Shown here: positions 1,221 to 58,394 of the stretch, piece by piece
How the letters are laid out: every line of letters starts with the position of its first letter
How positions within the stretch are numbered: the first letter of the stretch is position 1
Origin: Prevotella sp.
Lineage (GTDB): Bacteria; Bacteroidota; Bacteroidia; Bacteroidales; Bacteroidaceae
Assembly: GCA_045131435.1 (NCBI GenBank)
Contig: JBGUQW010000110.1
Location: forward strand, 177 to 64,176
Direction of reading: 5' to 3'
Length of the DNA: 64,000 bases
Notes under the pieces: generated by a model
What the model was told of the DNA's origin: nothing
Databases searched by the model: none
Seen by the model: the letters and a program-made list of their open reading frames with translations, nothing else
Made by a program: the position numbers and the translations under genes

Positions 1221-2233
1221 AACGCCAAACCATCATTATCACAAAGGGATGTTGCCAGTTGCTGCGCTTCGTGACGAGCGGGTTTACCTGTAGCCGTCAT
1301 TGGAATATGCGGAACGGTGAGGATATGGCGCGGAAGCCAGTATTTAGGAAGAACGTTACGGCAAATGGCCTGTAAGGTTGCAGTATCAGACGACTCGGTG
1401 AGCATGACAACCTGTTCGCCGAGTCTGACGTCTGGCACTTTGGTAATTATAAAAGGAACACGCACGCAAGACCTCAGCAGGCGTTCCACCTCTTCAATCT
1501 GAATCTTGATACCACCTGAACAGATGACGTTGTCCTTGCGCCCAAGGATGCGGAAGGCCACCTTCCCCGCCCTCTCCGACTGGAGAGGGGGCCGCAGTTC
1601 AGCGATGTCGTTGGTGACGAGAGTTCCGTCGTGAACAGTAGGGGCATCAATGACCAAGCAGCCATCATCATTCAGCGATAAACGGACGCCATCGAAGGGC
1701 GTATACCAGTCGGAGCGCTCAGGGCCGTTGAGTCGGCGCAGGGCAATATGTGAGAGCGTTTCCGTCATGCCGTAGGTGCTATAAACAGGATTTGGGAAAT
1801 CAGCCAGGGCACGCTCCAGCTCAGCATCGATGGCACCCCCTCCGATGATGAGATGACGAATAGCTTTCAGGCATTCGCGTTCCTCAGGAACCTGAAGCGA
1901 GTTGTAAACCTGAAGAGGAACCATCGCCGCAAAATCAATATGCCCAGCCACTGTTCCCAGCGGGTTTCCGCTGGGTGGAACAGTGATAAGCTCCAGGCCA
2001 CAGGTGAGGGCACGGACGACCATCATTTTGCCTGCGATATAGTCGAGCGACATGCAAAGCAGAGCCGTATCGCCTGGCTGCAGTCCCAAGAAGCGGCATG
2101 TCATGCGTGCCGAGGCCTTCATGCGCCGTTTCTCTACGAGCATGGGCTTCGGCTGTCCCGTGGAGCCGCTGGTATGTACCAACAGCGTGGGACTATCGTT
2201 GTGCCATTCGGCAAGAAACTCTTCTAAACTCAC
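1217..2233 (-). CDS. menE: O-succinylbenzoate-CoA ligase (AMP-binding enzyme)
   Basis: AMP-binding motif TSGSTGQPKP, GMTE, and C-terminal TATGKPAR. It sits next to menC and menB. The start appears to be GTG. Its stop overlaps the mutS2 stop by 4 nt (convergent). Confidence 0.8.
   Translation of the reverse strand: MSLEEFLAEWHNDSPTLLVHTSGSTGQPKPMLVEKRRMKASARMTCRFLGLQPGDTALLCMSLDYIAGKMMVVRALTCGLELITVPPSGNPLGTVAGHIDFAAMVPLQVYNSLQVPEERECLKAIRHLIIGGGAIDAELERALADFPNPVYSTYGMTETLSHIALRRLNGPERSDWYTPFDGVRLSLNDDGCLVIDAPTVHDGTLVTNDIAELRPPLQSERAGKVAFRILGRKDNVICSGGIKIQIEEVERLLRSCVRVPFIITKVPDVRLGEQVVMLTESSDTATLQAICRNVLPKYWLPRHILTVPHIPMTATGKPARHEAQQLATSLCDNDGLAF
1565..1592 (-). repeat. related palindromic mini-element, in frame in menE
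   Basis: The sense strand reads ccccctctcc-agtc-ggagagggcgggg, which encodes PPLQSERAG. Confidence 0.5.
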
Positions 2234-2264
2234 CTTGAACCTTTAACCATGAACCCTTAACCAT
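2233..2264 (+). repeat. heptamer array CTTGAAC/CTTTAAC/CATGAAC/CCTTAAC at the menC-menE junction
   Basis: TGA/TAA recur at about 7-nt spacing and hit all three + frames (checked by hand). The array overlaps the menC C-terminus LWLRVHG. Confidence 0.7.
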
Positions 2265-3316
2265 AATTTGTCGCCCCTTATCTCTAAAGGCATATCGATA
2301 TTATCTGTAAAAAGCTGACCTGTGCCAAGACCCTGTGGCATCATCTCCCCTCCTTGGGAGGGGTTGGGGGAGCTTTCATACACGCTGGCACAAAACTGTG
2401 CGATGGCATTCAGTCCGATGTTGCTCTCAAGAGCCGATGTAATCCACGTGCCGATACGCATGTCGCGAGCTGTTTCTATCCACTCGCGACAGCCCATCAT
2501 GCCACCATGCAGCGAAGGTTTCAGCACGAGGTAGCGCGGACGGATGATGTTGAGCATCTGGCGCTTCTGGTCAGGATCGTTGACACCGATGAGTTCCTCG
2601 TCGAGGGCGATGGGCAATGGTGACTCGCGACATAGCTCGGACATAAACGACCACTGGCCAGCACGGATGGGTTGCTCGATGCTGTGCAGGGCATACTGCG
2701 ACAGCAGTTCGAGTTTGTACAAAGCTTCGTCAAAGGAGAACGCACCATTGGCATCGACGCGCAGTTCAACGTCGTGATGACTGAAACGGCTGCGAATCTT
2801 TTTAATCAGTTCCAGCTCGGCATCGAAGTCGATAGCCCCTATTTTCAGTTTGACGCAATGGAAGCCCTGCTTGAGTTTCTCTTCGATGCGCTGTTGCATC
2901 TCTTCAAAGGTTCCCATCCATACGAGACCGTTGATGGGAATACCCTGTTTGCCACGAGAGAAGGGGGTGTAGAAGAGAATGGGTGATGGGTGGTGGGTGT
3001 TGGGTGATGGATGATTCCTCAAATCAAGTAATGCTGTTTCCAAGCCGAAAAGCATGGAGGGGTAGTCGCGGAGGGCTTCGTAGGGTATTTCACCAGTACG
3101 CTCCACATCGTCGCAGAAGTGGCGCAGCACGTCGGCATAGTTTGGCAGGTCGTCGCAACTGAGCTGGGGCAGCGGGGCACATTCGCCTGTTCCGACTGCA
3201 GAACCGTCGGACACGCGAAGGAGCCAGATGCGGCGCTCAGTATAGACGCCACGACTGGTACCTGCTGGCTGTTTGAAATGGAGTACGCGCTCCTCAATGT
3301 CGATTTTATAACTCAT
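2243..3316 (-). CDS. menC: o-succinylbenzoate synthase (enolase superfamily, MR/MLE)
   Basis: Enolase-superfamily pattern: KLKIG, ELRVDANGAF, IEQP, LDEEL. It lies between menB and menE. It carries two short repeat insertions (see findings). Confidence 0.85.
   Translation of the reverse strand: MSYKIDIEERVLHFKQPAGTSRGVYTERRIWLLRVSDGSAVGTGECAPLPQLSCDDLPNYADVLRHFCDDVERTGEIPYEALRDYPSMLFGLETALLDLRNHPSPNTHHPSPILFYTPFSRGKQGIPINGLVWMGTFEEMQQRIEEKLKQGFHCVKLKIGAIDFDAELELIKKIRSRFSHHDVELRVDANGAFSFDEALYKLELLSQYALHSIEQPIRAGQWSFMSELCRESPLPIALDEELIGVNDPDQKRQMLNIIRPRYLVLKPSLHGGMMGCREWIETARDMRIGTWITSALESNIGLNAIAQFCASVYESSPNPSQGGEMMPQGLGTGQLFTDNIDMPLEIRGDKLWLRVHG
2345..2372 (-). repeat. C-rich/G-rich palindromic mini-element, in frame in menC
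   Basis: The sense strand reads ctcccccaacccctcc-caa-ggaggggag, which encodes SPNPSQGGE. Confidence 0.7.
2981..3014 (+). repeat. GT-rich heptamer array (GGGTGAT/GGGTGGT/GGGTGTT), a G4 motif, inside menC
   Basis: gggtgatgggtggtgggtgttgggtgatgg. The antisense reading gives NHPSPNTHHPSP. Confidence 0.8.
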
Positions 3317-4285: not shown

Positions 4286-5965
4286 ATGCTACAAATCCGC
4301 TGCAAGAACAATGGCGTCACCAAGAGTTTCCCTGAAGGATGCTCCCTATTAGACGTTTATCAGGAGTTTGCCGACGACATCAAACTCCCCTACCCTGTGG
4401 TCTCGGCCAAAGTGAATAATGCCTCGCAAGGACTAAAGTTCCGTCTCTATCAGAATCGCGATGTAGAATTCCTCGACGCCCGTGAGGGAAGTGGTCATCG
4501 TGTCTATGTCCGTTCCCTGTGCTTCCTGCTCTACAAAGCTACGCAGGACGTCTTTCCCGGGTCAAAGCTTTTCATTGAGCATACCATCTCGCGTGGCTAC
4601 TACTGTAACTTCAAGAAGAAGGGCAACGAGGTGCTGTCCGATGGCGACGTAGAACAGATTTACAATCGCATGAATGAGATAGTGAATCTGGACATGCCGT
4701 TCCGACGCACTGAGGCGACGAACGAAGAAGCCATCCGCGTCTTTGCCGAACGGGGCTTTGCAGACAAGGTGAAGCTGCTGGAGACCAGCGGACAGATATA
4801 CAGCGACTACTACATGCTGGGCGATACTGCCGACTACTACTATGGTCCGTTGGTGCCCAGTGCGGGTTATTTGAAAGTATTCGGACTGGAGCCCTACCAC
4901 GACGGTATGCTGCTCCGCGTACCCGACTGGAATAACCCCACCATATTGGCCGAGAAGGTCGACATGCCTAAGACCTACGAGATGTTTGCTGAAAAGACCC
5001 GTTGGGACATCATCATGCGTCTGTCCAATGCCGGCGATGTCAACAGAGCCATCCTGAAAGGGCACGCCTCAGAGCTGATTCAGGTCAGTGAGGCCCTGCA
5101 GGAAAAGAAAATCGTACAGATAGCAGAGGATATAGACCGTCGTTTCCACGCCGAAGAGAATCCCATCCGCATCGTGCTCATCACAGGACCGTCATCATCG
5201 GGAAAAACCACGTTCTGCAAACGTCTAAGCATTCAGCTGCTGGCATGTGGACTGCGTCCGCTATCGTTCTCGACAGATGATTATTTCGTCAACCGCGTCG
5301 ATACGCCAAAATTACCCAACGGCGACTACGACTTCGACAACATCGAAGCTGTCGACTACCATCTGCTGGAGGATCACCTGACAGCTTTGATGAATGGCGA
5401 ACGCGTGGAGATTCCTGAATACAACTTCTCGACAGGCAAGCGCGAGTGGAACGGTAAGAAAATCAAACTGGGAGGCGACACGGTGCTGATCATCGAGGGC
5501 ATCCATGCACTGAATCCCTTGTTGACCAAGAAGATAGAAGACTCGCTGAAGTACAAGATCTATATCTCAGCACTGACCAGCATCTCACTCGATGACCACA
5601 ACTGGATTCCGACACGCGACAACCGTCTGCTGCGCCGCATCATCCGCGACTATAACAAGGGAGCCTTTACGGCTCAGGAAACCATTGCCCAATGGAAGAA
5701 CGTCTGCGAGGCCGAAGACAAATGGATTTTCCCCTATCAGGAGACTGCCGATGCGATGTTCAACTCGGCGCTGAACATCGAGTTTGCCGTACTCCGTACC
5801 CATGCAGAAATCATTCTGGCCTCCGTACCCCGCAACTGCGCTGAGTACGCCGAGGCCCACCGGCTGCTGAAGTTCATCCACTACTTCCTCCCTGTCTCTG
5901 ACAAGGAGATTCCACCCACCAGCATCATGCGTGAGTTCGTGGGTGGCAGCAGCTTTAAATATTAA
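4286..5965 (+). CDS. nucleoside/uridine-kinase-like P-loop protein with a TGS-like N-terminal domain
   Basis: P-loop ITGPSSSGKTTF and a PRK/uridine-kinase-like C-terminal half. I moved the start to ATG 4286 because the track start overlaps the TATCTTTG -7 box at 4259-4266. Confidence 0.7.
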   Translation: MLQIRCKNNGVTKSFPEGCSLLDVYQEFADDIKLPYPVVSAKVNNASQGLKFRLYQNRDVEFLDAREGSGHRVYVRSLCFLLYKATQDVFPGSKLFIEHTISRGYYCNFKKKGNEVLSDGDVEQIYNRMNEIVNLDMPFRRTEATNEEAIRVFAERGFADKVKLLETSGQIYSDYYMLGDTADYYYGPLVPSAGYLKVFGLEPYHDGMLLRVPDWNNPTILAEKVDMPKTYEMFAEKTRWDIIMRLSNAGDVNRAILKGHASELIQVSEALQEKKIVQIAEDIDRRFHAEENPIRIVLITGPSSSGKTTFCKRLSIQLLACGLRPLSFSTDDYFVNRVDTPKLPNGDYDFDNIEAVDYHLLEDHLTALMNGERVEIPEYNFSTGKREWNGKKIKLGGDTVLIIEGIHALNPLLTKKIEDSLKYKIYISALTSISLDDHNWIPTRDNRLLRRIIRDYNKGAFTAQETIAQWKNVCEAEDKWIFPYQETADAMFNSALNIEFAVLRTHAEIILASVPRNCAEYAEAHRLLKFIHYFLPVSDKEIPPTSIMREFVGGSSFKY

Positions 5966-6007
5966 AGATGAAAGATGAAAAATTAAAAATTAAAAATTAT
6001 AAATTAA
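5964..6007 (+). repeat. heptamer array 2x AAGATGA plus 4x AAAATTA between the kinase-like gene and menD
   Basis: 7-nt periodicity. Stops fall in two of the three + frames. Confidence 0.7.
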
Positions 6008-12225: not shown

Positions 12226-13956
12226 ATGAACGTATTAGAACTTAGTGAACAAGAGATTGGCAGACGCGAAAGTCTGCAACAATTACGGCAAATGGGTATC
12301 GACCCGTATCCAGCCGCAGAATATCCCACCAATGCATTTTCAACAGAAATCATAGATAGCTTCAAGGACGATGATGAGCCCCGTGAGGTAAGCATTGCAG
12401 GCCGTATGATGAGCCGTCGTGTGATGGGCAAGGCTTCGTTTGTAGAATTACAGGACTCTAAGGGCCGCATTCAGGTGTATATAACGCGTGATGACCTGTG
12501 CCCTGGTGAGGACAAGGAGTTATATAATACGGTGTTCAAAAAGTTGCTGGATATTGGTGACTTTATTGGCATCAAGGGTTTTGTGTTCCGTACGCAGACA
12601 GGAGAAATTAGCGTACACTGTAAAGAGCTGACACTGTTGTCAAAGGCCTTGAAGCCCCTGCCTATCGTCAAATATAAGGACGGTGTGGCCTACGATAAGT
12701 TTGATGATCCTGAACTGCGTTATCGCCAGCGTTATGTCGACCTGGTGGTGAACGAGGGCGTAAAAGATACTTTCCTAAAGCGTGCCACCATCATCCGTAC
12801 CCTGCGCAGCATCCTTGATGGTGCTGGTTACACGGAGGTTGACACGCCCATCCTGCAGAATATTGCAGGTGGTGCATCGGCCCGTCCATTCATCACCCAC
12901 TTCAACGCGCTCAACCAAGATATGTATATGCGTATCGCTACTGAGCTCTACCTGAAGCGACTCATCGTTGGTGGTTTCGAGGGCGTCTACGAGATGGGCA
13001 AGAACTTCCGCAACGAGGGTATGGACAAGACCCACAATCCGGAGTTTACCTGTATGGAGCTCTACGTCAGCTATAAGGACCTGCTGTGGGGTATGACCTT
13101 CACCGAGAATATGCTCGAGCAGATTTGTACGGCTGTCAACGGCAAGCCCGAGGTGGAGATCGATGGCAACATCATTTCATTCAAGGCGCCTTTCCGTCGT
13201 CTGCCTATCCTCGACGCCATCAAAGAGAAGACCGGTTTCGACTGCGATGGAAAGTCTGAGGACGAGATTCGCCAGTTCTGCCTCTCTAAGGGCATGGAAG
13301 TCGACGAGACCATGGGTAAGGGTAAGCTTATCGACGAGCTCTTTGGTGAGTTCTGCGAGGGTTCATTTATCCAGCCTACCTTCATTACCGACTATCCCGT
13401 TGAGATGTCTCCTCTCACCAAGATGCACCGTTCTAAGCCCGGTCTCACTGAGCGTTTCGAACTGATGGTGAATGGTAAGGAGCTGGCCAACGCCTACTCT
13501 GAGCTCAACGATCCTATCGACCAGGAGGAGCGCTTCATTGAACAGATGAAGTTGGCTGACAAGGGCGACGACGAGGCGATGATCATCGACCAGGACTTCC
13601 TGCGTGCCCTGCAATATGGTATGCCTCCAACGTTTGGTATCGGTATCGGTATTGACCGTCTTGTGATGCTGCTCACAGGCAAGTTCACTATTGGCGAGGT
13701 GATGCTGTTCCCGCAGATGAAGCCAGAGAAGAAGATTCCGCAGTCTACACCTGCTGAATGGGCTGCTGTAGGCGTTGCCGAAGAGTGGGTACCCGTACTG
13801 CGCAAAGCTGGTTTCAACCTCGTGCAGAACATCGCCACAGAGAAGGCTCAGGGATTGCAGCAGAAGATTGGTGACATCGTCAAGAAGTACAAGCTCGACA
13901 TGCAGAAGCCTTCTGTCGACGCAATCGCTGCATGGATAGAGAAAGCTAACAGCTAA
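12226..13956 (+). CDS. lysS: lysine--tRNA ligase
   Basis: Class IIb aaRS blocks FRNEGMDKTHNPEF and GIGIGIDRLVMLL. The start is set at ATG 12226, downstream of the TACCTTTG box at 12188-12195. Confidence 0.95.
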   Translation: MNVLELSEQEIGRRESLQQLRQMGIDPYPAAEYPTNAFSTEIIDSFKDDDEPREVSIAGRMMSRRVMGKASFVELQDSKGRIQVYITRDDLCPGEDKELYNTVFKKLLDIGDFIGIKGFVFRTQTGEISVHCKELTLLSKALKPLPIVKYKDGVAYDKFDDPELRYRQRYVDLVVNEGVKDTFLKRATIIRTLRSILDGAGYTEVDTPILQNIAGGASARPFITHFNALNQDMYMRIATELYLKRLIVGGFEGVYEMGKNFRNEGMDKTHNPEFTCMELYVSYKDLLWGMTFTENMLEQICTAVNGKPEVEIDGNIISFKAPFRRLPILDAIKEKTGFDCDGKSEDEIRQFCLSKGMEVDETMGKGKLIDELFGEFCEGSFIQPTFITDYPVEMSPLTKMHRSKPGLTERFELMVNGKELANAYSELNDPIDQEERFIEQMKLADKGDDEAMIIDQDFLRALQYGMPPTFGIGIGIDRLVMLLTGKFTIGEVMLFPQMKPEKKIPQSTPAEWAAVGVAEEWVPVLRKAGFNLVQNIATEKAQGLQQKIGDIVKKYKLDMQKPSVDAIAAWIEKANS

Positions 13957-13970
13957 TAGCTAACAGCAAG
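13944..13970 (+). repeat. heptamer array AGCTAAC/AGCTAAT/AGCTAAC at the lysS stop
   Basis: TAA at 7-nt spacing falls in all three + frames. The lysS stop is the second unit. Confidence 0.75.
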
Positions 13971-20900: not shown

Positions 20901-20919
20901 TGTTCTTCTTTTATAATTT

Positions 20920-20947
20920 TGAGTGTTGAATGTTGAGTGTTGAATGG
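20920..20947 (+). repeat. heptamer array TGTTGAG/TGTTGAA
   Basis: Four TGA at 7-nt spacing cover all three + frames. Confidence 0.75.
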
Positions 20948-20975: not shown

Positions 20976-21048
20976 AATTTTCAATTATTCATTGATCAAT
21001 CGCCGAAGGCGACCATTCCTCATTCCTCATTCCACATTCCTCATTTTA
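20976..21048. repeat. composite element: AT-rich heptamers, a GC hairpin TCGCC-GAA-GGCGA (21000-21012), then CATTCCT heptamers
   Basis: The architecture and hairpin core (AATCGSCGAAGSCGAC) match the element at 51885-51957. The LRR stop codon lies in the right-hand array. Confidence 0.7.
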
Positions 21049-23353: not shown

Positions 23354-23403
23354 GCAAAGGCTATTATGCGAATTTGTAAAGCAAAGGATTAGCTTGTGCA
23401 CAG

Positions 23404-23466
23404 CAGAAAGGCATCGGCTGCACACCAGAAAGGCATCGGCTGCAAAGCAGAAAGGCATCGGTTGCA
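23404..23466 (+). repeat. 3 x 22-bp repeat CAGAAAGGCATCGGYTGCA (array A)
   Basis: Copies start at 23404, 23426 and 23448, on the same 22-bp lattice as array B. A degenerate fourth copy follows. Confidence 0.85.
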
Positions 23467-26574: not shown

Positions 26575-29500
26575 TTAGTCTATCACTTCGGGTACGACAT
26601 ATTCCACCTCAGGATGGACGGGCAGAGAGATGAAGAAGATGGTGCCGCCACCGGGATTGTCCTCCAGACGGATGCTGCCGCCATGGGCCACCACGATATT
26701 CTTCACGATATCGAGACCGATACCCTCGCTACCCACCATGGGTTCGAAGGCAGTAGCCTTGAATTCGTCCTTAATGCCAATGCTGTTATCAGCCACCTGA
26801 ATGCTGGCAAGGTCACCCTCGCCACGTCCGACATTGACGAATATCTGGCAGTCGCCGGGCGAGAAGCGGACGCTGTTTTTGAACAGGATGTTCATGGCCT
26901 CGACGATCTTCTTGCGGTCAATGCTTGCCAACAACTCATCGGCCATCGAGCGACAGGTGACCTTGGCCTTCCGTCCTGTAGGTGAGTCGGCAAAGACCTT
27001 AGTGACATCCTTCACGACATCCACCAGATTGCAGTCGGCGAGGTTCAGGGTGATGGCTGTTGGCTGTTGGGTGTTGGGTGATGGCTGTTGGCTGTCAGCT
27101 GAGGGGTGTTGACCATCGGCCTCTACCTTGAGCTTCTTGTACATCTCACTCATCCAATGCTGCTTATCGGTCTCGCGCTGTAGTTCCTGGGCACGGACAC
27201 GCTCAGCATGGCGCTTCAGGAACCAGCGGCGCCACCACCATGCTGCAGCGGCTATGAGCACCATGTAGAGCAGGATCATCCAGCGTGTGCGCCATAGTGG
27301 CGGACGGATGGTGATGTCGAGTTCGGCCTCGTCCTCACCCAGTGTGCCGTCGTCGTTCAGCATGCGGACATGCAAGGTGTAAGAGCCGGCACGCAGGGAG
27401 TTATAGGTGATGTTGGGGTTCTGCTCGGAGGTCTTCACCCAGTTTTCGTTGAAGCCCTCAAGCTGATAGACAAAGCGTGAGCGGTTGTGGATCTCGCCGC
27501 TCGAGCTGGCCAGCTGGATGGTGAACTGCTCGTCGTAGCGCAGCGTGATGTCACGGCAGTCGTCAAGGGCTTCGTCGAGAATGACACGACCCTCAATCTC
27601 CTGACCTACGGGGACGTCCTGGTCGAAGATTTGCAGACCACTAAAGAGGGGCACCTCACGGACACGGCCCTTGCCCATGTTCTTGGGGTTGATGACGTCG
27701 AGACCACCCTGACCGCCTACAAGGATGAGACCGTCAGGGGTATAGCACATGGAACGCTGGTTGTAGGGGCCGTCCTGCAAGCCGTCGCGGTTGTTGTAGC
27801 TGTGTACCACGAAACTCCACGTGCCATCGTCCTGCTTTGTCGGAACGATGTTCGAGATACCATGGTCGGTAGCCAGCCAGATGGTATGCCTGGCGTCTTC
27901 GATGATACTATTGACAGTAGAACCGAAGAATCCCGACTTCATATCGAGCAGATAGACGTGGTTGCCCTTACGGTCCCAGATGGTTGCACCCTGCGTGGAA
28001 CCCTGCCAGATGAGTTCGCGGCTGTCCTCAAGGGACGTAATGCCGCTCTCTGTAATGGGAACGTCATCCTGATTATTCGTGATATTGAAGTTCAGAATCT
28101 GGAAGGTCTTGGGATTGATGTACGAAATGTATTGCGAGTGGGAGATTTGCAGCCACCCCTTCTTGGTCTTGCCAACCACATTGATGTAGTCGCTGGGCAG
28201 ACGAGAATTGCTGATACGGAAGGTGCGCATCTTGCCGGTATTTTTGTCGATGCGCTGCACACCGGCTCCCAGCGTACCTATCCAGATATTGCCCCACATG
28301 TCTTCACACAGCGTCCAGACATTATTGGTCTGAAGACCGGTGGTATCGTTCGATGCCAGGATGTTCGTCACCTGACCGTTCTTGATGCGGATGATACCGC
28401 CTTCGAAGGTACCGAACCACACGGAGCCGTCACGGGCAACCAGTGATCCCACCATGGTGTTAGAGCGGAAACCGCTGTTCTCACGGTTGTAGACGACCTG
28501 CTCCTGGGTACGTGGATTATAGCGGATGATACCCTTGTCATTAGTGCCCAGCCACCAGTAGCCCTGACGGTCGGCACAGACGGTGTTGATGTTGCCCAGC
28601 TCCAGGTTGACGAAATTGGAGAGGCTGCCCGAATAGAGGTTGACACCACTGGTATAGGTACCTATCCACATGCGTCCCAGCTGGTCGCACATCAACATGC
28701 GCACGGTGTTGTCGGAGATGGTGGACTGGTCGAGCTTGTTGTTCAGGAACTGGCGCATCTCCTTCGTCTTGGGGTCAGCAATGAAGAGACCGCCATGATC
28801 GGTAGCTATCCAATAGCGACCTTCCTTGTCGACACGCATGTCCCAGATGGCCATCTCGCTGGGAACATCCTGATAGCCCCAGCTGCGCAGGGCCTCAGGA
28901 GCAGAGCGGATCCACTCCTTGGTGTGCAGGTTCAGAATGTAGGCATTGCCCGTAGAAATCAGCCACAGGAAACCGTCAGGGGTGAGGCATGGTCTGCAGC
29001 CCTGATTGTTCACCAACTGCTGTTCGCGCAGGTATTTGTTCTTCCATACAATGCGATCGGTCTTCTTGTCGAAACACAGCACCTCGCCATTGTTTGAGGT
29101 GACATACAGGTATTTGTCGTCATCGGTAAAGGATGACACACCGATGTCGTTATTGAACTCCTGGTCGCCATAGCCAAAGGGGTATTGCTTCAGCTTGGAC
29201 TCCTTGAGGTCAACATGCCAGAAACCATCTTCGAAGGTCTTTACCCAGTAGTTTTTCTCGCTGTCGATATAGATGCGCTCGACACCGCCCTTGACGCCAG
29301 CCTTGGTCAGTATGCGCTCAGGATGGCGGTCGGCCTGTTCCGTCCGCGGATCGAAGGTGGTATAGTTCATGCCCTGACGAAGCCACAGACAGCCATCGGC
29401 AGCCTCATAGATTTCGTCAATGTAGTTGTTACGCAGCGTCATGGTATCCTTCAGGACCGAGTAATAGGTCTTGAAGCGATAGCCGTCGTAGCGGTTCAGA

Positions 29501-29676
29501 CCATAGGGCGTGCCTATCCATACGAATCCTTTGGAGTCGCGCATAATAGATAGGATCTGTGAATTGGAGAGACCGTCGCGGGTGTCCAATCGACGAAACT
29601 TCATATCAGGAATACTGGCCTGAAGTGCCACTGGCAGCAGCATGGCCACCAAAAGCAGGGATAGTGTTCTTCGCAT
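26575..29676 (-). CDS. HTCS-like periplasmic sensor (beta-propeller repeats + Y_Y_Y + one TM). It keeps only a degenerate HATPase-like C-terminus, with no H-box, receiver or HTH.
   Basis: N-terminus FRRLDTRDGLSNSQI...GLNRYDGY and repeated propeller units. TM segment WMILLYMVLIAAAAWWW. The tail has KNSVRF, DNSIGI and GSEGIGLDIV but no HExxTPL box. Confidence 0.85.
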   Translation of the reverse strand: MRRTLSLLLVAMLLPVALQASIPDMKFRRLDTRDGLSNSQILSIMRDSKGFVWIGTPYGLNRYDGYRFKTYYSVLKDTMTLRNNYIDEIYEAADGCLWLRQGMNYTTFDPRTEQADRHPERILTKAGVKGGVERIYIDSEKNYWVKTFEDGFWHVDLKESKLKQYPFGYGDQEFNNDIGVSSFTDDDKYLYVTSNNGEVLCFDKKTDRIVWKNKYLREQQLVNNQGCRPCLTPDGFLWLISTGNAYILNLHTKEWIRSAPEALRSWGYQDVPSEMAIWDMRVDKEGRYWIATDHGGLFIADPKTKEMRQFLNNKLDQSTISDNTVRMLMCDQLGRMWIGTYTSGVNLYSGSLSNFVNLELGNINTVCADRQGYWWLGTNDKGIIRYNPRTQEQVVYNRENSGFRSNTMVGSLVARDGSVWFGTFEGGIIRIKNGQVTNILASNDTTGLQTNNVWTLCEDMWGNIWIGTLGAGVQRIDKNTGKMRTFRISNSRLPSDYINVVGKTKKGWLQISHSQYISYINPKTFQILNFNITNNQDDVPITESGITSLEDSRELIWQGSTQGATIWDRKGNHVYLLDMKSGFFGSTVNSIIEDARHTIWLATDHGISNIVPTKQDDGTWSFVVHSYNNRDGLQDGPYNQRSMCYTPDGLILVGGQGGLDVINPKNMGKGRVREVPLFSGLQIFDQDVPVGQEIEGRVILDEALDDCRDITLRYDEQFTIQLASSSGEIHNRSRFVYQLEGFNENWVKTSEQNPNITYNSLRAGSYTLHVRMLNDDGTLGEDEAELDITIRPPLWRTRWMILLYMVLIAAAAWWWRRWFLKRHAERVRAQELQRETDKQHWMSEMYKKLKVEADGQHPSADSQQPSPNTQQPTAITLNLADCNLVDVVKDVTKVFADSPTGRKAKVTCRSMADELLASIDRKKIVEAMNILFKNSVRFSPGDCQIFVNVGRGEGDLASIQVADNSIGIKDEFKATAFEPMVGSEGIGLDIVKNIVVAHGGSIRLEDNPGGGTIFFISLPVHPEVEYVVPEVID
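27048..27096 (+). repeat. GT-rich heptamer array inside the sensor gene
   Basis: gggtgat ggctgtt ggctgtt gggtgtt gggtgat ggctgtt ggctgt. The antisense reading gives QQPSPNTQQPTAIT. Confidence 0.8.
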
Positions 29677-39118: not shown

Positions 39119-41366
39119 GCATGGTATTCTCCCACCTAAAGGTAGGAGTGTGGCGTTGCGAAGGGTAATAGTTGTTTGGTGTTGGGTGATAGGTGTTGGA
39201 TGTTGGCTGTTACCTTGTGACATGAAAGCTCAGGACAAACTCTTTACGCTGGAAGACCTCAACTTCGGTGGCACCAACTACCGCAACATGCAGCCCGAGA
39301 ACATGTGGCTTACATGGTGGGGCGACCAGCTGGTACAGACCGATGTGGAAGAATGTAACCTCATCGATGTCAAGACCGGTAGGAAGCAGCAGCTCTTTAC
39401 CCTCGACGACATCAACAAATGGGCAGACAGCGACGAAGAAGCCAACCGCTATGTACGACACCTGATGAATGTCACCTTCCCCTACCCTGACCAGCCACTG
39501 GTGGCTGTAGGCAACAAGAAGGCATTCCTGCTCGTCGACTTCAAAGCCCACCAGGTGGTGTGGCAAGACAGCATCTCTGGTCAAGAGGCCAACGACTGGA
39601 GCACGCCGTCGCGAGCCACTGCCTATGTGGACGGCCACCAGCTCTTCATCGTCGACGGACAGGGCCGGAAACACCAGCTGACCACCGACGGCAGCCGTAG
39701 CGTGGTGTACGGATCCCCCGTACACCGAAACGAGTTCGGTATCAACAAGGGAACCTTCTGGAGTCCCGATGGCCAGCGCCTGGCCTTCTATCGCATGGAC
39801 CAGTCCATGGTTGCCGACTATCCGCAGGTCGACATCTTCCCCCGTGAGGCCACCTACGAGCCCGACAAGTATCCCATGGCCGGCATGACGAGCCACGTGG
39901 TGACCGTCGGTGTCTACGACCTCAAGACCGGCAAGACCGTCTATTTGAAAACCCCTAACGGCAGTGTGGTCGGTGATTCCGTCACCGACCCAAGCCCCGT
40001 TTACTTCACAAACATCGCCTGGAGTCCCGACGGCAGCACCATCTACATGTTTGAGCTGAACCGCGACCAGAATGACTGCCGCCTTGTCAGCTATGATGCT
40101 GTGACGGGAGAGCGAATGGCCGAGCTCTACCGCGAGACCAGCGACAAATACGTCGAACCAATGCACCCCATCCAATTCCTGCCCTGGGATTCCGACAAGT
40201 TCGTCATGCAGAGCCAGCGCGACGGCTTCAACCACCTATATATATATAATAAGGAGGGGAAGCTCCTGAAGCAGCTCACTAGTGGCCCGTGGGTGGTACA
40301 GAAGGTGCTGGGCTTCAACAGCAGGCAAAAGAGCATCATCTTCGAAGCCAACAAGTACCATCACCTGCACCGCCAAATATACAGTGTCAGCGTCAATAGT
40401 GGAAAAATCACGCAGCTTACGGTAGAAGACGGCGTTCATCGTGGAGAGCTGTCGGCAACGGGCGCTTTCCTCATCGACCGCCACTCAGCACCCAATGTGC
40501 CCCGCAACATCAACGTGGTCAACGTATCCAGCGGGAAAACCGCTGGACACTCGCTCCGCCTCCTGACCGCCGCAGACCCGTGGGCCGGCTACCAGCAGCC
40601 CCTCTTCGAGTGCGGCTCCATCAAGGCCGCCGACGGACGTACCGACCTATACTACCGCATGGTGAAGCCTGCCGACTTCGACCCGGCAAAGAATTACCCC
40701 ACCGTGGTCTACGTCTATGGCGGTCCTCACGCCCACAACGTCGAGGCCAGCTGGCACTGGTACAGTCGTACATGGGAAACGTATATGGCACAGAAGGGCT
40801 ACATCATCTTCATTCTCGATAACAGAGGCTCTGAATACCGGGGGCGCGACTTCGAGCAGGCAACCTTCCGACAGCTGGGACAAGTCGAGATGCAGGATCA
40901 GATGCAGGGCGTAGCATTCCTAAAGACCCTGCCGTATGTTGACGCCGACAGAATCGGTGTCCACGGCTGGTCGTTCGGCGGCTTCATGACCATCTCGCTC
41001 ATGCTTAACTACCCCGACGTGTTCAAGGTCGGCGTTGCCGGAGGACCCGTCATTGACTGGAAGTGGTACGAGGTGATGTATGGCGAGCGCTATATGGACA
41101 CACCCCTGCAAAACCCCGAGGGCTACGAGAAAACCAGCCTTATCAACAAGGCCGCCAACCTGAAGGGACGCCTGCAGATTATTACGGGCTACAACGACAA
41201 CACCGTCGTACCCCAGCACTGCCTGTCGTTCCTCGACGCCTGCATCAAGGCCGGCACCCAGCCCGACTTCTTCGCCTACCCCGGCGAGGGTCACAACATG
41301 CGGGGACATGCCAGCGTCCATCTGCATGAGCGTATCACCCGGTATTTTGAAGACTACCTGAAATAG
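39105..41366 (+). CDS. S9-family serine peptidase, dipeptidyl-peptidase IV-like
   Basis: DPP-IV-type propeller block WSPDGQRLAFYRMDQS and nucleophile motif HGWSFGGFM. The start choice (ATG 39105, overlapping the upstream stop) is tentative. ATG at about 39222 is the alternative. Confidence 0.82.
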   Translation: MTKIKHGILPPKGRSVALRRVIVVWCWVIGVGCWLLPCDMKAQDKLFTLEDLNFGGTNYRNMQPENMWLTWWGDQLVQTDVEECNLIDVKTGRKQQLFTLDDINKWADSDEEANRYVRHLMNVTFPYPDQPLVAVGNKKAFLLVDFKAHQVVWQDSISGQEANDWSTPSRATAYVDGHQLFIVDGQGRKHQLTTDGSRSVVYGSPVHRNEFGINKGTFWSPDGQRLAFYRMDQSMVADYPQVDIFPREATYEPDKYPMAGMTSHVVTVGVYDLKTGKTVYLKTPNGSVVGDSVTDPSPVYFTNIAWSPDGSTIYMFELNRDQNDCRLVSYDAVTGERMAELYRETSDKYVEPMHPIQFLPWDSDKFVMQSQRDGFNHLYIYNKEGKLLKQLTSGPWVVQKVLGFNSRQKSIIFEANKYHHLHRQIYSVSVNSGKITQLTVEDGVHRGELSATGAFLIDRHSAPNVPRNINVVNVSSGKTAGHSLRLLTAADPWAGYQQPLFECGSIKAADGRTDLYYRMVKPADFDPAKNYPTVVYVYGGPHAHNVEASWHWYSRTWETYMAQKGYIIFILDNRGSEYRGRDFEQATFRQLGQVEMQDQMQGVAFLKTLPYVDADRIGVHGWSFGGFMTISLMLNYPDVFKVGVAGGPVIDWKWYEVMYGERYMDTPLQNPEGYEKTSLINKAANLKGRLQIITGYNDNTVVPQHCLSFLDACIKAGTQPDFFAYPGEGHNMRGHASVHLHERITRYFEDYLK
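39171..39211 (+). repeat. degenerate GT-rich heptamer array inside the 5' end of the S9 peptidase gene
   Basis: gttgtttggtgttgggtgataggtgttggatgttggctgtt, read in sense as VVWCWVIGVGCWLL. Confidence 0.65.
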
Positions 41367-41390
41367 CTGAGAATTGAGAGTTGAGAATTA
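41367..41390 (+). repeat. heptamer array CTGAGAA/TTGAGAG/TTGAGAA between the S9 peptidase gene and serB
   Basis: TGA at 7-nt spacing falls in all three + frames. Confidence 0.75.
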
Positions 41391-45144: not shown

Positions 45145-45965
45145 ATGGAATTCAGGACAAAGGTTGAGACGGGGAAAGCAGACTTTGAAATAAAAGCCTG
45201 CGAAGATGTACTTCTGGTGGGCTCGTGCTTTGCAAACGGGATAGGACAACGGTTTAAGGACAATGGTTTTCCGGCAACGGTGAATCCATTCGGCACCATG
45301 TATAACCCTGCCAGCGTGCTGCATACGCTGGAACGATTCATGGTTCATGGTTCACGGTTCACGGTTAACACCGTTTTCCTGACGCTGGGCACGAACCATG
45401 TATATCGTCTGAAAGAGACTGGCGAGATTGTGGACAACTGTGAGAAGCGCCCTGCCGCACTGTTTCAGGAGGAAGAACTGACAGTAGATGCATGTGCTGA
45501 CTATCTGCAGAAAGCCATCGAATTGCTCAGAGGTCATCATCCGGACGTCCGCGTGGTGCTGACTGTCAGCCCCATCCGCTATCGCAAATACGGCTATCAT
45601 GAGAGCCAGCTGTCAAAAGCCACCCTATTGTTAGCCATTGAGAAGGTGATGTCATCTCAAATCTCAAACCTCTCCATCTGTCCTACTTCCCTGCCTACGA
45701 AATCGTGATGGATGAATTGCGCGACTACCGTTTCTATGCGTCTGACATGCTGCACCCTTCGGAGCAGGCTGTCGACTACATCTGGGAACGGCTGGTGGAG
45801 TGGTGCTTCAGCGACGAGGCCAAAGCATTTATGGACGAATGGCGCCCCATCAGGGAAGCCTTACACCATCGTCCCTTCAATCCGGAGTCGGAGGAATACC
45901 TTTTGTTCAAGGAAAAAACGCAGGCTCGCCTAAAAGCCTTCAAAGAGAAATGGAAAATGCGATAG
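45145..45965 (+). pseudogene. GSCFA-family protein split by a frameshift around 45650-45675
   Basis: The N-terminal frame has the LVGSCFANGIG motif. The C-terminal part (HLSYFPAYEIVMDELRDYRFYASDMLHPSE...) continues in the -1 frame (equivalently +2). The switch coincides with a 7-nt repeat. Confidence 0.75.
45652..45672 (+). repeat. heptamer array TCATCTC/AAATCTC/AAACCTC inside the GSCFA gene, at the frameshift
   Basis: It shares a 19-nt identical stretch (ATCTCAAATCTCAAACCTC) with the mtnN array. Confidence 0.75.
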
Positions 45966-46000
45966 TCATTCCTCATTTCTCATTCCTCATTTCTCATTTA
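45966..46000 (-). repeat. heptamer array (TGAGGAA/TGAGAAA on the minus strand) just downstream of the fkp stop
   Basis: Five minus-strand TGA at 7-nt spacing cover all three frames. Confidence 0.75.
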
Positions 46001-46004
46001 GATT

Positions 46005-48608
46005 TTAGCTCCTGCTAACCTGTAGGCCCTTCTTGGAGAGCGTCATATCGACGAAGCGGGCATTGGGATTGGGTTGTGCCTCGTTGATGACCTGTTTGAT
46101 GCGAGCCGCAGCCTCAGGATCCTTAGCCACCATGTAGAGATAGCCTCCCCCACCCGCTCCAGGCAGCTTATAGCCCAGACAGAGGTCATCGACAAGGTCA
46201 GTGATGCATCGCACACTGTCAGGATTGGTACCGCTGTCGATGAGCTGGTTCTGCTGCCACGTCCTGCGGATGAGTCGTCCCATCTCCTGGAAGTCCTGAC
46301 GCTGGATGGCCTCGTACATATCGATGGCATGTGCCTTCATGGCCCGCAACTGACGCAGTTCACCACCGTGGTTGAGGAACATGCGGCGTACAATCTCTGC
46401 CAGAATGGTCTTGGCCGTACGTGTGATGCCAGTGTAATAGAGCAGATGACACTGCCTGTATTCCGGTTGGATGAAGACATCGTCGGGCAACCAGCGCACC
46501 AAGGGGTCTTGGTTGAAGCCGCGTTGCGTCTGCAACAATTTCACGCCACCCAATATGCCGCCAAACTGATCCTGCCAGCCACCGCCAGTGGTCAGCAGCT
46601 GTTCGAGCATCAGGGTACGACGGCCTATCTCGTTCTTGTCCCATGCCAGCGAACAGAAATCGCTCAAGGCACCCAGTACGGTCGATGCCAGGATGCTCGA
46701 CGTACCCAGTCCACTGCCTGCAGGAACGGCCGACAGCAACGTCAGTTCGATGCCTGTTCCAAAGGCCTCCAACTGCTGACGCAGCGAGGAAAAGTTCTCC
46801 TGTGAAAAGGCCGGCAGGAAGCCCGCTAAGGCCAGTGCCGCCTTGGGAATGGAGAACGGCGAGCCTACCTTGTTATATTCCGCCAACTGCTCGTAGGTCT
46901 CAATGACTTCCCTCGCTCCGAGGTCGATGCTACGAAGTACGATATGCGGTTCACGGCAGGGCTTGACAAAGGTCTGCAGTGGTGGCTGTCCATTCAGCTC
47001 TATGGCGATGTTCACCACGTTGCCACCCTCCATCAGACAGTAAGGCGGTGTGTCTGTCCAACCGCCAGCCAGGTCGATGCGGACGGGTGAACGTCCCCAC
47101 ACAATTTGGTCTGGATAGACGGAGAGATGTGGGGTGGCAGGTGCTGGATGATGAGTGATACCCTGACGCAGCAGCGAGAAGGCCTGCTGGCTATTGCCAC
47201 GGAACATGGCATCATGGATGCGCGTCATCAGGGGTGCCGTATCGCTAAGGGGTTCTGGCATGGGTAGTTGCGCCTCGCTGAATTCATGGAAGGCATCGTC
47301 GAGGTCAAGCTGATAGAACACCGAGTGCTGCCAGTTCTTGGCCAATGCCGGCCAGTTCTGCTTGCGGAAGGTGCGACGCTGTTCAAAGAGTCTGCGCAGA
47401 TTGACACGCTCAGCGAGTTCGTTGCTGTTTAGAGCCTCATCGATACGATAGCGGCGTACCTCATAGTCGCTATCGCCCACAGGTGCCACATCAATGCACT
47501 CGCCAGGCTCCAGATGCACCTCCCAGTCGTTCTCGGGAACCCCCGTCACGATATTGTCGTGGGTCAGTGTCCATCGCGGTCCGATGTAGCTGTTCTCCAC
47601 CCAGATATTGTAGTTGTCAGCCGTAAAAGGATAGTGGCAGATACTGTTCTGCGTAAAAATGCTGGGGTGTGGCTTACGGTCGTTGTGCATGATGTCACGC
47701 TGGTCGTTGACGACGTTCTGGATGGCCACCGTCGAGGAAATCATTTCCTTTGACGTCCCAAAGTGGTAGAACTCGCCACCTGGCAGGGGCACAATGGCCA
47801 CGCTAAGCTCATGCAGTTCAGGGTCAGCGATGGTGGGATCGGTGCCAAGGGCACAACCGAATTCCGAGTAGAGGTCGTATTCTTTGAGGTGATGGGTGTT
47901 GGGTGATGGGTGATGGGTGTTGGCATCATCCTCCGCTTGACACCTATTACATAACAACTTGACGGCACGGTCGCTGAGCATCCAGATACCAATATCAGTC
48001 AGGTAGAAGTGGTCTTTCAGTAGTTCTGAAAGGCGTTCTACGCTGGGCTTCTGCAGCATCTGCTTCAATACAGTAGGTGTACGGCGGTCGCTGACAAACA
48101 CACCGTGATTCTTGGCGATACTGGCATCGAGCCACAGACCGTAGCATACCACGTCGGCATCGGGAATCTGGCCGATACGCTCAGCAGCTCGGATGTAGAC
48201 GTCGCCACTGACAATCATCGTGGTCAGGCGTTTCGGTGCCTGTTCCATCATGCGCTCATAAAGCGGCAGCTGCAGGTCGAGCAGCGTCTGACTGAGGCGC
48301 TGTCCGCGTTCCCAGCGGAATACGGGGATAGGTGTCAGAATCTTGCCACTGACAGCATAGGCAGGCAGTCGCTTGCTTTGTCCACCGGCATGCAGGATGA
48401 TGCGCTTTTCCTTTGACAGCCAGTCGGAGAACGACTGACCACCATCTTCTGCCTGCCACGCTTGCTGAAGCAGCCATGTAGTGCCACCACCGGATCCTAA
48501 CCGATGACCGATAGGGTCACAGGTGCAGAAATACTCGTCACGCGACAGTCCCGTCACGTCGTGGAAACAGTCCACCAGATTCGGTGGCAACGACAGCAGC
48601 TTTTTCAT
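46005..48608 (-). CDS. fkp: bifunctional L-fucokinase / fucose-1-phosphate guanylyltransferase-like protein
   Basis: C-terminal GHMP-kinase motif VPAGSGLGTSSILAS and an N-terminal nucleotidyltransferase-like half. The size and layout resemble Bacteroides Fkp. Confidence 0.8.
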   Translation of the reverse strand: MKKLLSLPPNLVDCFHDVTGLSRDEYFCTCDPIGHRLGSGGGTTWLLQQAWQAEDGGQSFSDWLSKEKRIILHAGGQSKRLPAYAVSGKILTPIPVFRWERGQRLSQTLLDLQLPLYERMMEQAPKRLTTMIVSGDVYIRAAERIGQIPDADVVCYGLWLDASIAKNHGVFVSDRRTPTVLKQMLQKPSVERLSELLKDHFYLTDIGIWMLSDRAVKLLCNRCQAEDDANTHHPSPNTHHLKEYDLYSEFGCALGTDPTIADPELHELSVAIVPLPGGEFYHFGTSKEMISSTVAIQNVVNDQRDIMHNDRKPHPSIFTQNSICHYPFTADNYNIWVENSYIGPRWTLTHDNIVTGVPENDWEVHLEPGECIDVAPVGDSDYEVRRYRIDEALNSNELAERVNLRRLFEQRRTFRKQNWPALAKNWQHSVFYQLDLDDAFHEFSEAQLPMPEPLSDTAPLMTRIHDAMFRGNSQQAFSLLRQGITHHPAPATPHLSVYPDQIVWGRSPVRIDLAGGWTDTPPYCLMEGGNVVNIAIELNGQPPLQTFVKPCREPHIVLRSIDLGAREVIETYEQLAEYNKVGSPFSIPKAALALAGFLPAFSQENFSSLRQQLEAFGTGIELTLLSAVPAGSGLGTSSILASTVLGALSDFCSLAWDKNEIGRRTLMLEQLLTTGGGWQDQFGGILGGVKLLQTQRGFNQDPLVRWLPDDVFIQPEYRQCHLLYYTGITRTAKTILAEIVRRMFLNHGGELRQLRAMKAHAIDMYEAIQRQDFQEMGRLIRRTWQQNQLIDSGTNPDSVRCITDLVDDLCLGYKLPGAGGGGYLYMVAKDPEAAARIKQVINEAQPNPNARFVDMTLSKKGLQVSRS
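47888..47923 (+). repeat. GT-rich heptamer array, a G4 motif, inside fkp
   Basis: ggtgatgggtgttgggtgatgggtgatgggtgttgg. The antisense reading gives NTHHPSPNTHH. Confidence 0.8.
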
Positions 48609-48638
48609 TGACCATTGAACGTTGAACGTTGAACATTA
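48606..48638 (+). repeat. heptamer array CATTGAC/CATTGAA/CGTTGAA/CGTTGAA/CATTATT between the YfhO-like gene and fkp
   Basis: Four + strand TGA at 7-nt spacing cover all three frames. Confidence 0.75.
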
Positions 48639-51228: not shown

Positions 51229-51885
51229 ATGAAGATAGGTATTATTGTAGCAATGGACAAGGAGCTGCGACAGCTTCAGCAGCTCTTCGACAGCAGTCAC
51301 GTCCGTGTAGAAAAATGTGGCATCGGCAAGGTGAATGCCGCCCTTGGTGCCCAGCGCATGATCAATGAGTTCCACCCTGACTGCATCATCTCCAGCGGAT
51401 GTGCCGGTGGCAACGGCGATGATGTCAACATACAGGATGTCGTTGTCAGCAGCGAACTGTGTTATCACGACGTCTACTGTGGCACAGCCATCGACAACAC
51501 GACCATTTATGGACAGGTGCAGGGCCTTCCAGCCCGCTACCAGGCAGACCCACACTTGCTGCAGAAGGCGCAAAGCCTAAATCTCAAATCTCAAACCTCA
51601 AATCTCAAAACACATTCTGGTCTGATTGTTACTGGCGACTGGTTTGTGGACTCGAAGGAAAAGATGCGCGAGATTATCGGACACTTCCCTGAGGCTAAGG
51701 CTGTCGACATGGAGTCGTGTGCCATCGCCCAGACGTGCTACATCAACAAGGTGCCGTTCATTTCCTTCCGTGTCATCAGCGACATTCCTCTTCGCGACAC
51801 CGATGCCTCGCAGTATCACAACTTCTGGGACACCATCGCCGACCACTCCTTCCAGGTCACCAAGACCTTCGTCGAGTCCCTATAA
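51229..51885 (+). CDS. mtnN: 5'-methylthioadenosine/S-adenosylhomocysteine nucleosidase
   Basis: MKIGIIVAMDKE..., GIGKVNAA, VDMESCAIAQ. It lies upstream of luxS. It contains an in-frame 7-nt repeat array. Confidence 0.9.
   Translation: MKIGIIVAMDKELRQLQQLFDSSHVRVEKCGIGKVNAALGAQRMINEFHPDCIISSGCAGGNGDDVNIQDVVVSSELCYHDVYCGTAIDNTTIYGQVQGLPARYQADPHLLQKAQSLNLKSQTSNLKTHSGLIVTGDWFVDSKEKMREIIGHFPEAKAVDMESCAIAQTCYINKVPFISFRVISDIPLRDTDASQYHNFWDTIADHSFQVTKTFVESL
51579..51613 (+). repeat. heptamer array AAATCTC x2, AAACCTC, AAATCTC, AAAACAC, in frame inside mtnN
   Basis: It encodes LNLKSQTSNLK. The antisense strand carries TGA every 7 nt. Confidence 0.8.
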
Positions 51886-51957
51886 TTCTCAATTCTTAAT
51901 TGTTAATCGGCGAAGCCGACAACTCTTAATTCTTAACTCTTAATTCTTAATTCATAA
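51885..51957 (+). repeat. composite element: AATTCTY heptamers, a GC hairpin CGGC-GAA-GCCG (51908-51918), then CTTAAYT heptamers
   Basis: It fills the mtnN-luxS spacer. The right-hand array has TAA in all three + frames. Confidence 0.75.
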
Positions 51958-58305: not shown

Positions 58306-58394
58306 ATATCCTCAAAATGGGCTTTTAATTTCGCCTACAGATTTCAGATTTCGTCTAAAAACCTTTAAATCTTGTCTGAAAACGAAAAAAAATA

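Follow-up and report, generated by a model that had tools for sequence, protein, structure and literature searches.

Why should the space between two genes consist of seven-nucleotide units repeated head to tail, in such a way that every reading frame meets a stop codon? The question is raised by a 64,000-nucleotide stretch of DNA (C110:177-64176, hereafter the window) from a Prevotella assembly of 3.79 Mb, 243 contigs and 50% GC, here labelled G000, in which such a heptamer array makes up the whole gap between an S9 peptidase gene and serB. An initial annotation of the window proposed that arrays of this kind may act as frame-independent translation stops or insulators and offered slippage-prone spacers as a fallback. 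Our analysis supports the fallback. The arrays are probably heptanucleotide long simple-sequence repeats (LSSRs), of the class formed by the LSSRs of Mrazek and the short tandemly repeated repetitive (STRR) sequences of cyanobacteria, here in an uncultured rumen Prevotella, and the stop codon in every frame is a real physical consequence of the repeat that shows no sign of being under selection.

Heptamer arrays in the window and across the genus

In the window, Tandem Repeats Finder (TRF) reports 18 rows of period 7, of which 16 have three or more copies (Table 1). All nine sites named in the initial annotation carry period-7 arrays, the frame closures that it had checked by hand were reproduced there by script, and its gene names (DPP-IV/S9 peptidase, SerB, LysS, LuxS and Fkp) are right. 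Relatives of LysS at 82-97% identity come mainly from metagenome-assembled genomes of uncultured rumen Prevotella and from Segatella copri, and sheep, goat and bovine gut metagenomes contain contigs near-identical to the window.

The impression that these arrays are far from random is borne out by the genome as a whole, for which we used TRF with a threshold of at least three copies and, separately, a stricter period scan, with a genome simulated under an order-3 Markov model as the control for chance. TRF finds 819 rows of period 7 against 64, 179 and 98 of periods 6, 8 and 9, and the corresponding numbers in the simulated genome are 12 against 10, 5 and 0. The strict scan finds 326 arrays of period 7 against 5, 29 and 8 of periods 6, 8 and 9 and none in the simulation at any period, so that period 7 is clearly enriched over its neighbours. 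The arrays do not each have a unit of their own, as the initial annotation had supposed: the 326 strict arrays, with a median of 4.6 copies, draw on just 65 canonical units, the commonest being AAATGAG (54 arrays), ACCCATC (36) and AAATCTC (22), and arrays with a common unit are non-independent observations.

Placement was assessed with gene calls from a codon-usage caller written for this analysis (2979 genes, 89% coding). Once merged, the 819 rows give 796 arrays that are 68% A+T and cover 4.0% of intergenic and 0.33% of coding bases, a 12-fold difference, with 240 arrays lying inside called open reading frames (ORFs). Among the 394 arrays at junctions between genes of the same direction, 70 start in the stop codon itself, and 45% reach to within 10 nt of the called next start codon; the median share of the spacer taken up by an array is 59% (spacers of at least 15 nt). 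Where arrays abut start codons, their sense strand is rich in A (A 0.43, T 0.33). The commonest unit, AAATGAG, shows no bias in orientation (13:20), and neither do most other units.

Two further origins were considered and rejected. Footprints of insertion-sequence target-site duplication would appear as direct pairs of one unit, and such pairs at 300-4000 nt make up only 19 of 386 adjacent pairs, by a rough estimate about what is expected from common units alone. An all-against-all BLAST of 60-nt flanks produced one large cluster of 230 flanks; the members inspected share neighbouring arrays and the promoter box TAcCTTTG, and no common element was seen in them that would make the arrays parts of a larger dispersed element.

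Relatives were surveyed with the pattern (TGA N4)x3 TGA, for which fewer than one chance match is expected per genome. At least one match occurs in 126 of 151 Bacteroidota genomes, and the 81 genomes of the genus hold from 0 to about 370 matches each, 14 being without a match; array loads across genomes depend on two anchor triplets, TGA and its reversed control, AGT.

All-frame stops and strand symmetry

Because 7 = 1 mod 3, any stop triplet within a unit recurs in all three frames, and with AT-rich units that are often seeded on a stop codon, closure of every frame would be common as a by-product on either strand. The arithmetic put forward in the initial annotation is right, and its effect on spacers is real. 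On the sense strand, all three frames are closed in 50% of spacers of 15-30 nt that hold an array and in 7% of those that do not, in 55% versus 24% at 30-45 nt and in 75% versus 33% at 45-70 nt, so that a short spacer with an array is closed two to seven times more often than a plain one, as would suit an insulator between adjacent genes. Antisense closure, however, is likewise raised (35% versus 6%, 29% versus 7% and 46% versus 16% in the same three classes), and spacers without arrays are already biased to sense over antisense closure.

Counting stops array by array gives the same picture. At tandem junctions, sense stops occur in 281 arrays and antisense stops in 210, an excess that arises because 168 of the arrays contain the upstream gene's own stop codon and thus have a sense stop by definition. 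Among the 220 that lie wholly past the upstream stop, a stop is present on the sense strand in 132 and on the antisense strand in 139, where permuted units predict 131.2 with a sense stop, and all three frames are closed in 94 on the sense and in 110 on the antisense strand. A weak sense excess in closure is seen where such arrays start 0-10 nt after the stop (50 versus 37, p = 0.08), the bias is reversed at more than 10 nt from it (44 versus 73), and arrays that abut the next start codon are nearly balanced (37 versus 39). Enrichment for units that contain a stop exists but is only mild, at 86% of arrays, counting a stop on at least one strand, versus 76% after permutation of their letters; within the 240 ORF-internal arrays, it is the antisense strand that is enriched for stops (136 versus 93.4 expected) and not the sense strand. 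Nor is spacing at 7 nt special to stop triplets, since AAT, ATG and ACC are also 7-periodic: fourfold occurrences at this spacing number 559 for AAT, 347 for TGA/TCA, 287 for TAA/TTA, 231 for ATG/CAT and 215 for ACC/GGT.

Three of the sites that the initial annotation listed close every frame only on the strand antisense to the genes. It had also described two arrays as covering two frames only, which for 5964-6007 is true of the plus strand and not of the minus strand, and which for 21015-21048 fails, as the minus strand closes all three once the gene's own TAA is counted (Table 1).

Relatives add to the case against an insulating role. Orthologous junctions could be mapped reliably in the relative G015 at three places only, synteny with this genome being fragmentary by DNA search, and sense stops are retained at one of them: the serB junction keeps a sense stop in each unit, TGA in G000 and TAA in G015, as an insulator would, and the other two have no sense stop in G015, where the lysS-gpsA array carries an antisense TGA instead. 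Across 79 species, lysS and gpsA overlap or are separated by at most 3 nt in 14, and the 47 spacers of 4-100 nt are closed on the sense strand in 13 cases and on the antisense strand in 15. Period-7 arrays anchored on AGT, a triplet that is stop-free on both strands, rival the TGA-anchored ones in many relatives, being as common or commoner in 18 genomes of the genus, and stop content is therefore not universal. Thus, all-frame stops are present, whereas sense stops equal the permutation expectation, antisense stops are equally frequent and neither a sense excess nor conservation at orthologous junctions is found. Strand symmetry largely refutes selection of the arrays as frame-independent terminators or insulators, which was a proposal of the initial annotation and not an established family, and we consider such a role extremely unlikely; selection for closure is not detectable.

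Origin, turnover and alternative readings

Where the stops come from is seen at the lysS-gpsA junction. The G000 array is made of the last lysS codons (GCT AAC), the resulting 7-mer AGCTAAC contains an out-of-frame TAA, and in the second copy this TAA is the in-frame stop of lysS. The array directly demonstrates both local seeding and the origin of stops in every frame. The junction also turns over rapidly: where G000 has AGCTAAC x3, G015 has TTKTCAA x4, G008 a 9-mer array and G013 no array and no spacer, its stop codon overlapping the ATG (alignment A5). The 79 species have spacers of -22 to 1000 nt, different in nearly every species and in one case holding an inserted gene. The strict detector, which overlooks weaker arrays here, that of G000 included, finds ten short tandem arrays among them (eight have period 7, and periods 6 and 9 have one each), and several other spacers look by eye like hairpins of inverted arrays. 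Arrays are common only to small groups of species, with AGCTAAC recurring in G000, L072 and L085 and TTGTCAA in L080, L098, L101 and L140.

The other two mapped junctions likewise differ. Between the S9 peptidase gene and serB, G015 (SerB 93% identical) has TTAAGAG x4 against TTGAGAG/A x3 in G000, with one position differing in every unit (alignment A1); G005 and G025 have inverted array pairs, and an array of this kind is lacking at the junction in G008 and seven other relatives, whose upstream sequence is also unalignable. In the spacer before the S9 peptidase gene, the GT-rich TGTTGGG-type array of G000 is replaced in G015 by CTCTCAC/CTCATAC, with conservation of both the flanking coding sequence and the ATG at 39222 (alignment A3). 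Two alignments obtained in G015 by coordinate offset (A2 and A4) turned out to be non-orthologous.

Change by a whole unit was observed at 45662, where contigs of seven of eight metagenomes carry an extra unit (CTCAAAC, +7 nt) in otherwise near-identical sequence. The independent X1 assembly, which may come from the window's source sample, has the shorter form of the window. Since 7 = 1 mod 3, the extra unit places ORFs 45145-45708 and 45708-45965 in one frame. Five other arrays are constant in length in at least three runs each at about 99.9% identity, namely those at 2232 and 2979 (unchanged in X2, X6 and X7), 5955 (in contigs of X6 and X7), 39173 (X2, X4 and X6) and 45333 (X1, X8, X9 and X11), so that one of the six checkable window arrays varies, in comparisons of assembled contigs that hide rare variants. 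At 45966, 47888 and 51921, depth spikes and unlike flanks indicate that the units of these arrays occur at many other loci of the community.

These observations are consistent with an account in which a local 7-mer, often the last codons with the stop or the context of a start codon, would be duplicated by strand slippage, and in which 7-nt loops would escape mismatch repair. Both the slippage and the escape are what we infer. The arrays would then grow, shrink and homogenise by one unit or by two, the latter giving 14-nt super-periods, and selection would remove them only where they do harm; the survivors would occupy DNA free of constraint, extending exactly as far as the nearest stop codon, start codon or -7 promoter box, as well as tolerant segments of proteins. 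That arrays abut constrained elements fits the expectation for sequences that take up any DNA left free.

Several points weigh against this account. Slippage alone leaves the preference for 7, and for 8 in some congeners, unexplained. Families of units (TGAGAGT and TGAATGT, for example) turn up again in different species, and this recurrence, together with only 65 units for 326 arrays, suggests that certain sequences are preferred or that arrays are copied from one another. Arrays are present at all three of the junctions mapped in G015, more than a background of about 18% predicts. The arrays are not hypermutable, although they change by whole units, and the oriented sub-classes described below (TAAATTG, and the T-rich arrays next to promoters) are unexpected of neutral filler. 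Finally, the gene caller is crude, which makes distances to start codons approximate, and 41 of the arrays called internal have a sense stop in their consensus, which indicates that some genes are miscalled.

The preference for one period is part of an alternative in which generic slippage is not the maker. With both anchors summed, 21 of the 81 genomes of the genus are rich in period 7 with little of period 8, four are dominated by period 8, 15 are rich in both and 15 are almost without either. The period-8 pattern has 6 matches in G000, 330 + 383 in G064, 307 in G003 and 128 + 546 in G069, and TRF on samples gives 10 rows of period 8 versus 1 of period 7 in G064 (82 kb), 0 versus 16 in the G000 window (64 kb) and 1 versus 10 in G008 (59 kb). 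Taken together with the fixed slots that arrays occupy, a lineage-specific period might point to a dedicated trans-acting determinant that makes or uses the arrays and to the period being a heritable trait of the lineage. The slots are the stop-to-start spacer, a position 4-9 nt before the -7 box, the arms of cassettes that carry a PF05635 gene and the TAAATTG leader; the determinant could be a variant of the replisome or of repair, an array-binding protein or the PF05635 cassette system. We think this reading unlikely, though it has some chance of being correct. Period-8 arrays also occur in G064, G003, G069, G071, G084 and G031 (L044-L058), some congeners being dominated by them, and their units resemble period-7 units with one base added (TGAGAAAT versus TGAGAAT).

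Orientation is the subject of a second alternative, that arrays, all or only some of them, function as 5' leader or translation-initiation elements in a lineage without Shine-Dalgarno pairing. The leader TAAATTGTAAATTGTCAAATTGTAAAT (unit TAAATTG) accounts for 28 arrays and 32 pattern matches in G000, outside the window (for example C111:5074-5108, C17:28051-28079 and C237:50406-50445); it is sense-oriented 26:0 and ends 2-10 nt before the ATG of genes that, read by eye, are housekeeping (rplW, lpxA, gyrA, acpP, serS and thioredoxin). The motif is found in its exact form in 23 of the 81 genus genomes and its reversed control in one, three other species (L038, L039 and L041) have it 4-7 nt before an ATG, and a literature search found no mention of it. 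The frequent ending of arrays near a start codon and the A-rich sense strand of those that abut one fit the same idea, and such a role has been proposed for TAACTGA repeats (PMC4679880). Yet most units other than TAAATTG are unoriented, arrays also occur after convergent genes, within ORFs and upstream of promoters, and orthologous junctions have no array or a different one.

Coverage around promoters also weighs against a leader role. In 84 cases an array ends 4-9 nt (mode 6) upstream of TAnnTTTG, which we take to be the Bacteroidetes -7 promoter box, and the promoter strand of such arrays is rich in T. Between -40 and -11 from the box, coverage by arrays is 8-10%, and downstream of it 0.2-0.8%, so that the lowest coverage falls between the box and the start codon, in what is the true 5' untranslated region of promoter-proximal genes. 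We therefore give only a slender chance to a leader function, as well as to its more specific form, in which unstructured A-rich repeats would be bound by S1, by a cold-shock protein or by some comparable factor. The promoter-adjacent arrays are usually joined to the box by a short tTTTG/TTTCG linker (e.g. C108:1842, C166:82757 and C205:49805), and several lie between two divergent -7 boxes.

A third alternative regards the arrays as cis-elements or footprints of a mobile cassette with a PF05635 gene (23S_rRNA_IVP, S23p/Avd-like, a four-helix bundle) as its only gene, solitary arrays being landing pads or remnants. Each of the four PF05635 genes of G000 (Table 1) has period-7 arrays on its flanks, which for three of the genes are inverted arrays of a single unit, and of six cassettes inspected by eye in other genomes, five have inverted short-unit arrays as both arms, one of these in G076, a genome in which neither pattern anchor has a match. 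In Segatella copri HDD04, a cassette with TGTTGAA/TTCAACA arms (L137:2889-3251) lies in the lysS-gpsA junction itself, and PF05635 copy number tracks array load across the 81 genomes (Spearman 0.69, p = 1.5e-12, with no control for phylogeny or genome size). No PF05635-array link was found in a literature search. The correlation is, however, equally expected if cassettes merely use arrays, and the numbers do not suit a generating role: G000 has about 800 arrays to four cassettes, adjacent inverted pairs of the same unit are rare (27 of 696 adjacent pairs), G000 holds no PF05635 fragments beyond the four genes, and the near-complete G070 (2 contigs) and G018 (3 contigs) lack a PF05635 gene, with 203 and 103 period-7 pattern matches respectively. 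The window likewise lacks a PF05635 gene, and its lysS array was seeded from local coding sequence. We find it very improbable that the cassettes generate the arrays; that they use them is the more economical reading. As a separate observation, at least three loci of G000 (C154:4786, C233:26353 and C42:21609) have inverted period-8 GCCCGAAT arrays around an AT-rich palindromic core, with GTAGACTT x3 arrays close to them.

That the arrays are contingency loci, in which gain or loss of a unit switches genes by frameshift or retunes promoters, is suggested by the one-unit polymorphism that breaks or restores the frame at 45662 and by the 84 arrays immediately upstream of -7 boxes, a place at which upstream elements would be shifted by a step of 7 nt, but is hardly credible given low copy number, flanking genes with housekeeping and not surface or virulence roles, and constant length in at least three other metagenomes at five of six checkable arrays.

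The arrays matter for annotation, as gene ends, choices of start codon and some apparent frameshifts in this clade are shaped by 7-nt arrays: loss of one unit splits the ORF pair 45145-45708 / 45708-45965 in this assembly, and a stop-free array can be read through to give fused or extended ORFs. They also show spacers arising de novo from coding ends and then being replaced within genus-level divergence. The switch between periods 7 and 8 and the link to PF05635 offer a concrete way to approach an old question, namely why the long simple repeats of bacteria are dominated by heptamers.

Table 1. Period-7 arrays of the window, with their setting and the frames that they close, and the PF05635 loci of G000. 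Coordinates are window positions unless a contig is given; + and - denote strands.
Position	Unit and copies	Setting	Frames closed	Basis
2232..2264	ACCTTGA/CCTTAAC, ~4 units, 14-nt super-period	fills gap between minus-strand genes 1217-2233 and 2243-3316	2233-2264: 3 on +, 2 on -	TRF
2979..3015	ATGGGTG x5.3	within ORF 2243-3316(-)		TRF, gene map
5955..6007	AAAGATG x2, then AAAAATT x4	from TAA stop of PRK-family kinase gene (4286-5965) to 14 nt before thiamine pyrophosphate (TPP)-enzyme gene (6021)	5964-6007: 2 on +, 3 on -	TRF
13944..13970	AGCTAAC x3.4	derived from final lysS codons; in-frame TAA stop of lysS in unit 2; 3 nt from array end to gpsA ATG (13974)	3 on both strands	
20915..20946	AATGTTG/AGTGTTG x4.6, 14-nt super-period	within 376-nt region between minus-strand genes	20920-20947: 3 on + only (antisense to flanking genes)	TRF
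21014..21048	CATTCCT x4.6	runs over stop codon of gene 21041-22948(-); on sense (-) strand, TAA is followed by (AGGAATG)n, each unit with a TGA	21015-21048: 3 on - (sense strand of gene whose end is 21041), own TAA counted	
27048..27111	TGGCTGT x6, 21- and 28-nt super-periods	within ORF 26575-29643(-)		
39173..39211	TGTTGGG x5.6, GT-rich	spacer from gene ending 39118 to S9 peptidase gene (ATG 39222)		
41367..41390	CTGAGAA TTGAGAG TTGAGAA TT	entire gap from S9 peptidase TAG stop (41364-41366) to serB ATG (41390)	3 on +, TGA x3	
45333..45366	ACGGTTC x4.9	within ORF 45145-45708(+)		
45654..45672	ATCTCAA x2.7	copy number polymorphic among metagenomes		
45966..45999	TCATTCC/TCATTTC x4.9, exact 14-nt super-period	fills gap between convergent genes 45708-45965(+) and fkp 46005-48608(-)	45966-46000: 3 on - only	TRF, gene map
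47888..47923	GGTGATG x5.1	within fkp (46005-48608, -)		
48606..48637	CATTGAA x4.6	fills gap from YfhO-like gene (stop 48636) to fkp (start 48608), both -; sense-strand unit TTCAATG provides fkp ATG	48606-48638: 3 on + only (antisense to flanking genes)	TRF, gene map
51579..51609	AAATCTC x4.4	within mtnN-like ORF 51229-51885(+)		
51883..51907	TAATTCT x3.6	begins at stop codon of mtnN-like gene		
51919..51957	TCTTAAT/TCTTAAC x4.9, 14-nt super-period	ends at luxS ATG (51958)	TAA in every frame, both strands	
58338..58352	CAGATTT x2.1, minimal, weak	after gene 56974-58305		TRF
C55:28286-28709		PF05635 locus		
C133:7672-8166		PF05635 locus		
C205:201715-202241		PF05635 locus		
C193:29470-30116		PF05635 locus		

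The window has tandem repeats of other lengths as well. Three blocks of 22-bp repeats lie at 23181-23466, upstream of gene 23559-26462(-), and a 27-nt coding repeat occupies 38966-39031 at the 3' end of the gene preceding the S9 peptidase gene; G015 has 9/27-nt repeats (TCTAGAGAT) at the equivalent place (L030:19565-19637).

Comparison with known repeat systems

The contingency simple-sequence repeats of Haemophilus and Neisseria have units of 1-5 nt in high copy number, switch fast and target surface or virulence genes. The arrays of the window resemble them in that slippage of a whole unit can shift a reading frame, as at 45662, and differ in being of 3-6 copies, mostly stable and located between housekeeping genes; length variation among near-identical strains, which is frequent in contingency repeats, is seen at one of the six checkable arrays. 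The inverted arms of the PF05635 cassettes are absent from the window and present at four other loci of G000.

A literature search found no published description of heptamer arrays in Prevotella. Stop codons were discussed for the TAACTGA direct repeat, which is known from marine Beggiatoaceae, from some Cyanobacteria and from five Bacteroidetes (MacGregor 2015, PMC4679880). Forward TAACTGA repeats stop all three frames and, where they overlap the end of a gene, supply its stop. As here, these are intergenic heptamers placed just before start codons. TAACTGA is, however, one unit in a strongly forward orientation, whereas most units in G000 are unoriented, and a single dominant forward unit near the start codon is not found overall; the TAAATTG sub-class alone behaves in this manner.

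Intergenic heptamer arrays of GGGAATC in Xanthomonas and GGGGA(C/T)T in Nostoc were described by Rehm et al. 2015 (PMC4692102). They share with the Prevotella arrays their occurrence at the same junctions in related species with differing length and sequence, as well as some inverted pairs, and they differ in being single G-rich, quadruplex-forming units, where G000 has many AT-rich units, most of which are unable to form a quadruplex. The STRR sequences of heterocystous cyanobacteria (Calothrix, Anabaena/Nostoc), to the extent that they are cited in PMC4692102, are likewise dispersed intergenic heptamers with a limited set of units; that set comprises about three G/C-containing units, in contrast to at least 65 AT-rich ones here, in another phylum and with no sequence relationship.

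The closest match is with the LSSRs of Mrazek, Guo and Shah 2007, whose work we consider in the form relayed by PMC4679880 and PMC4692102. According to these accounts, heptamers are the commonest LSSRs, polymerase slippage was proposed as their source, and the ten genomes richest in repeats of 5-11 nt include no Bacteroidota. The arrays of G000 are head-to-tail in at least three copies, in excess over chance and over neighbouring periods and mostly intergenic, and they change in length by whole units, by +7 nt at 45662 and from three units in G000 to four in G015 at the serB junction. They thus share with LSSRs, as relayed there, the head-to-tail units of 5-11 nt, the prevalence of heptamers, the mostly intergenic location and the patchy distribution across lineages. 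In contrast to the same accounts, the arrays described here fill spacers exactly from stop codon to start codon, and the preferred period varies among congeners, being 7, 8, both or neither.

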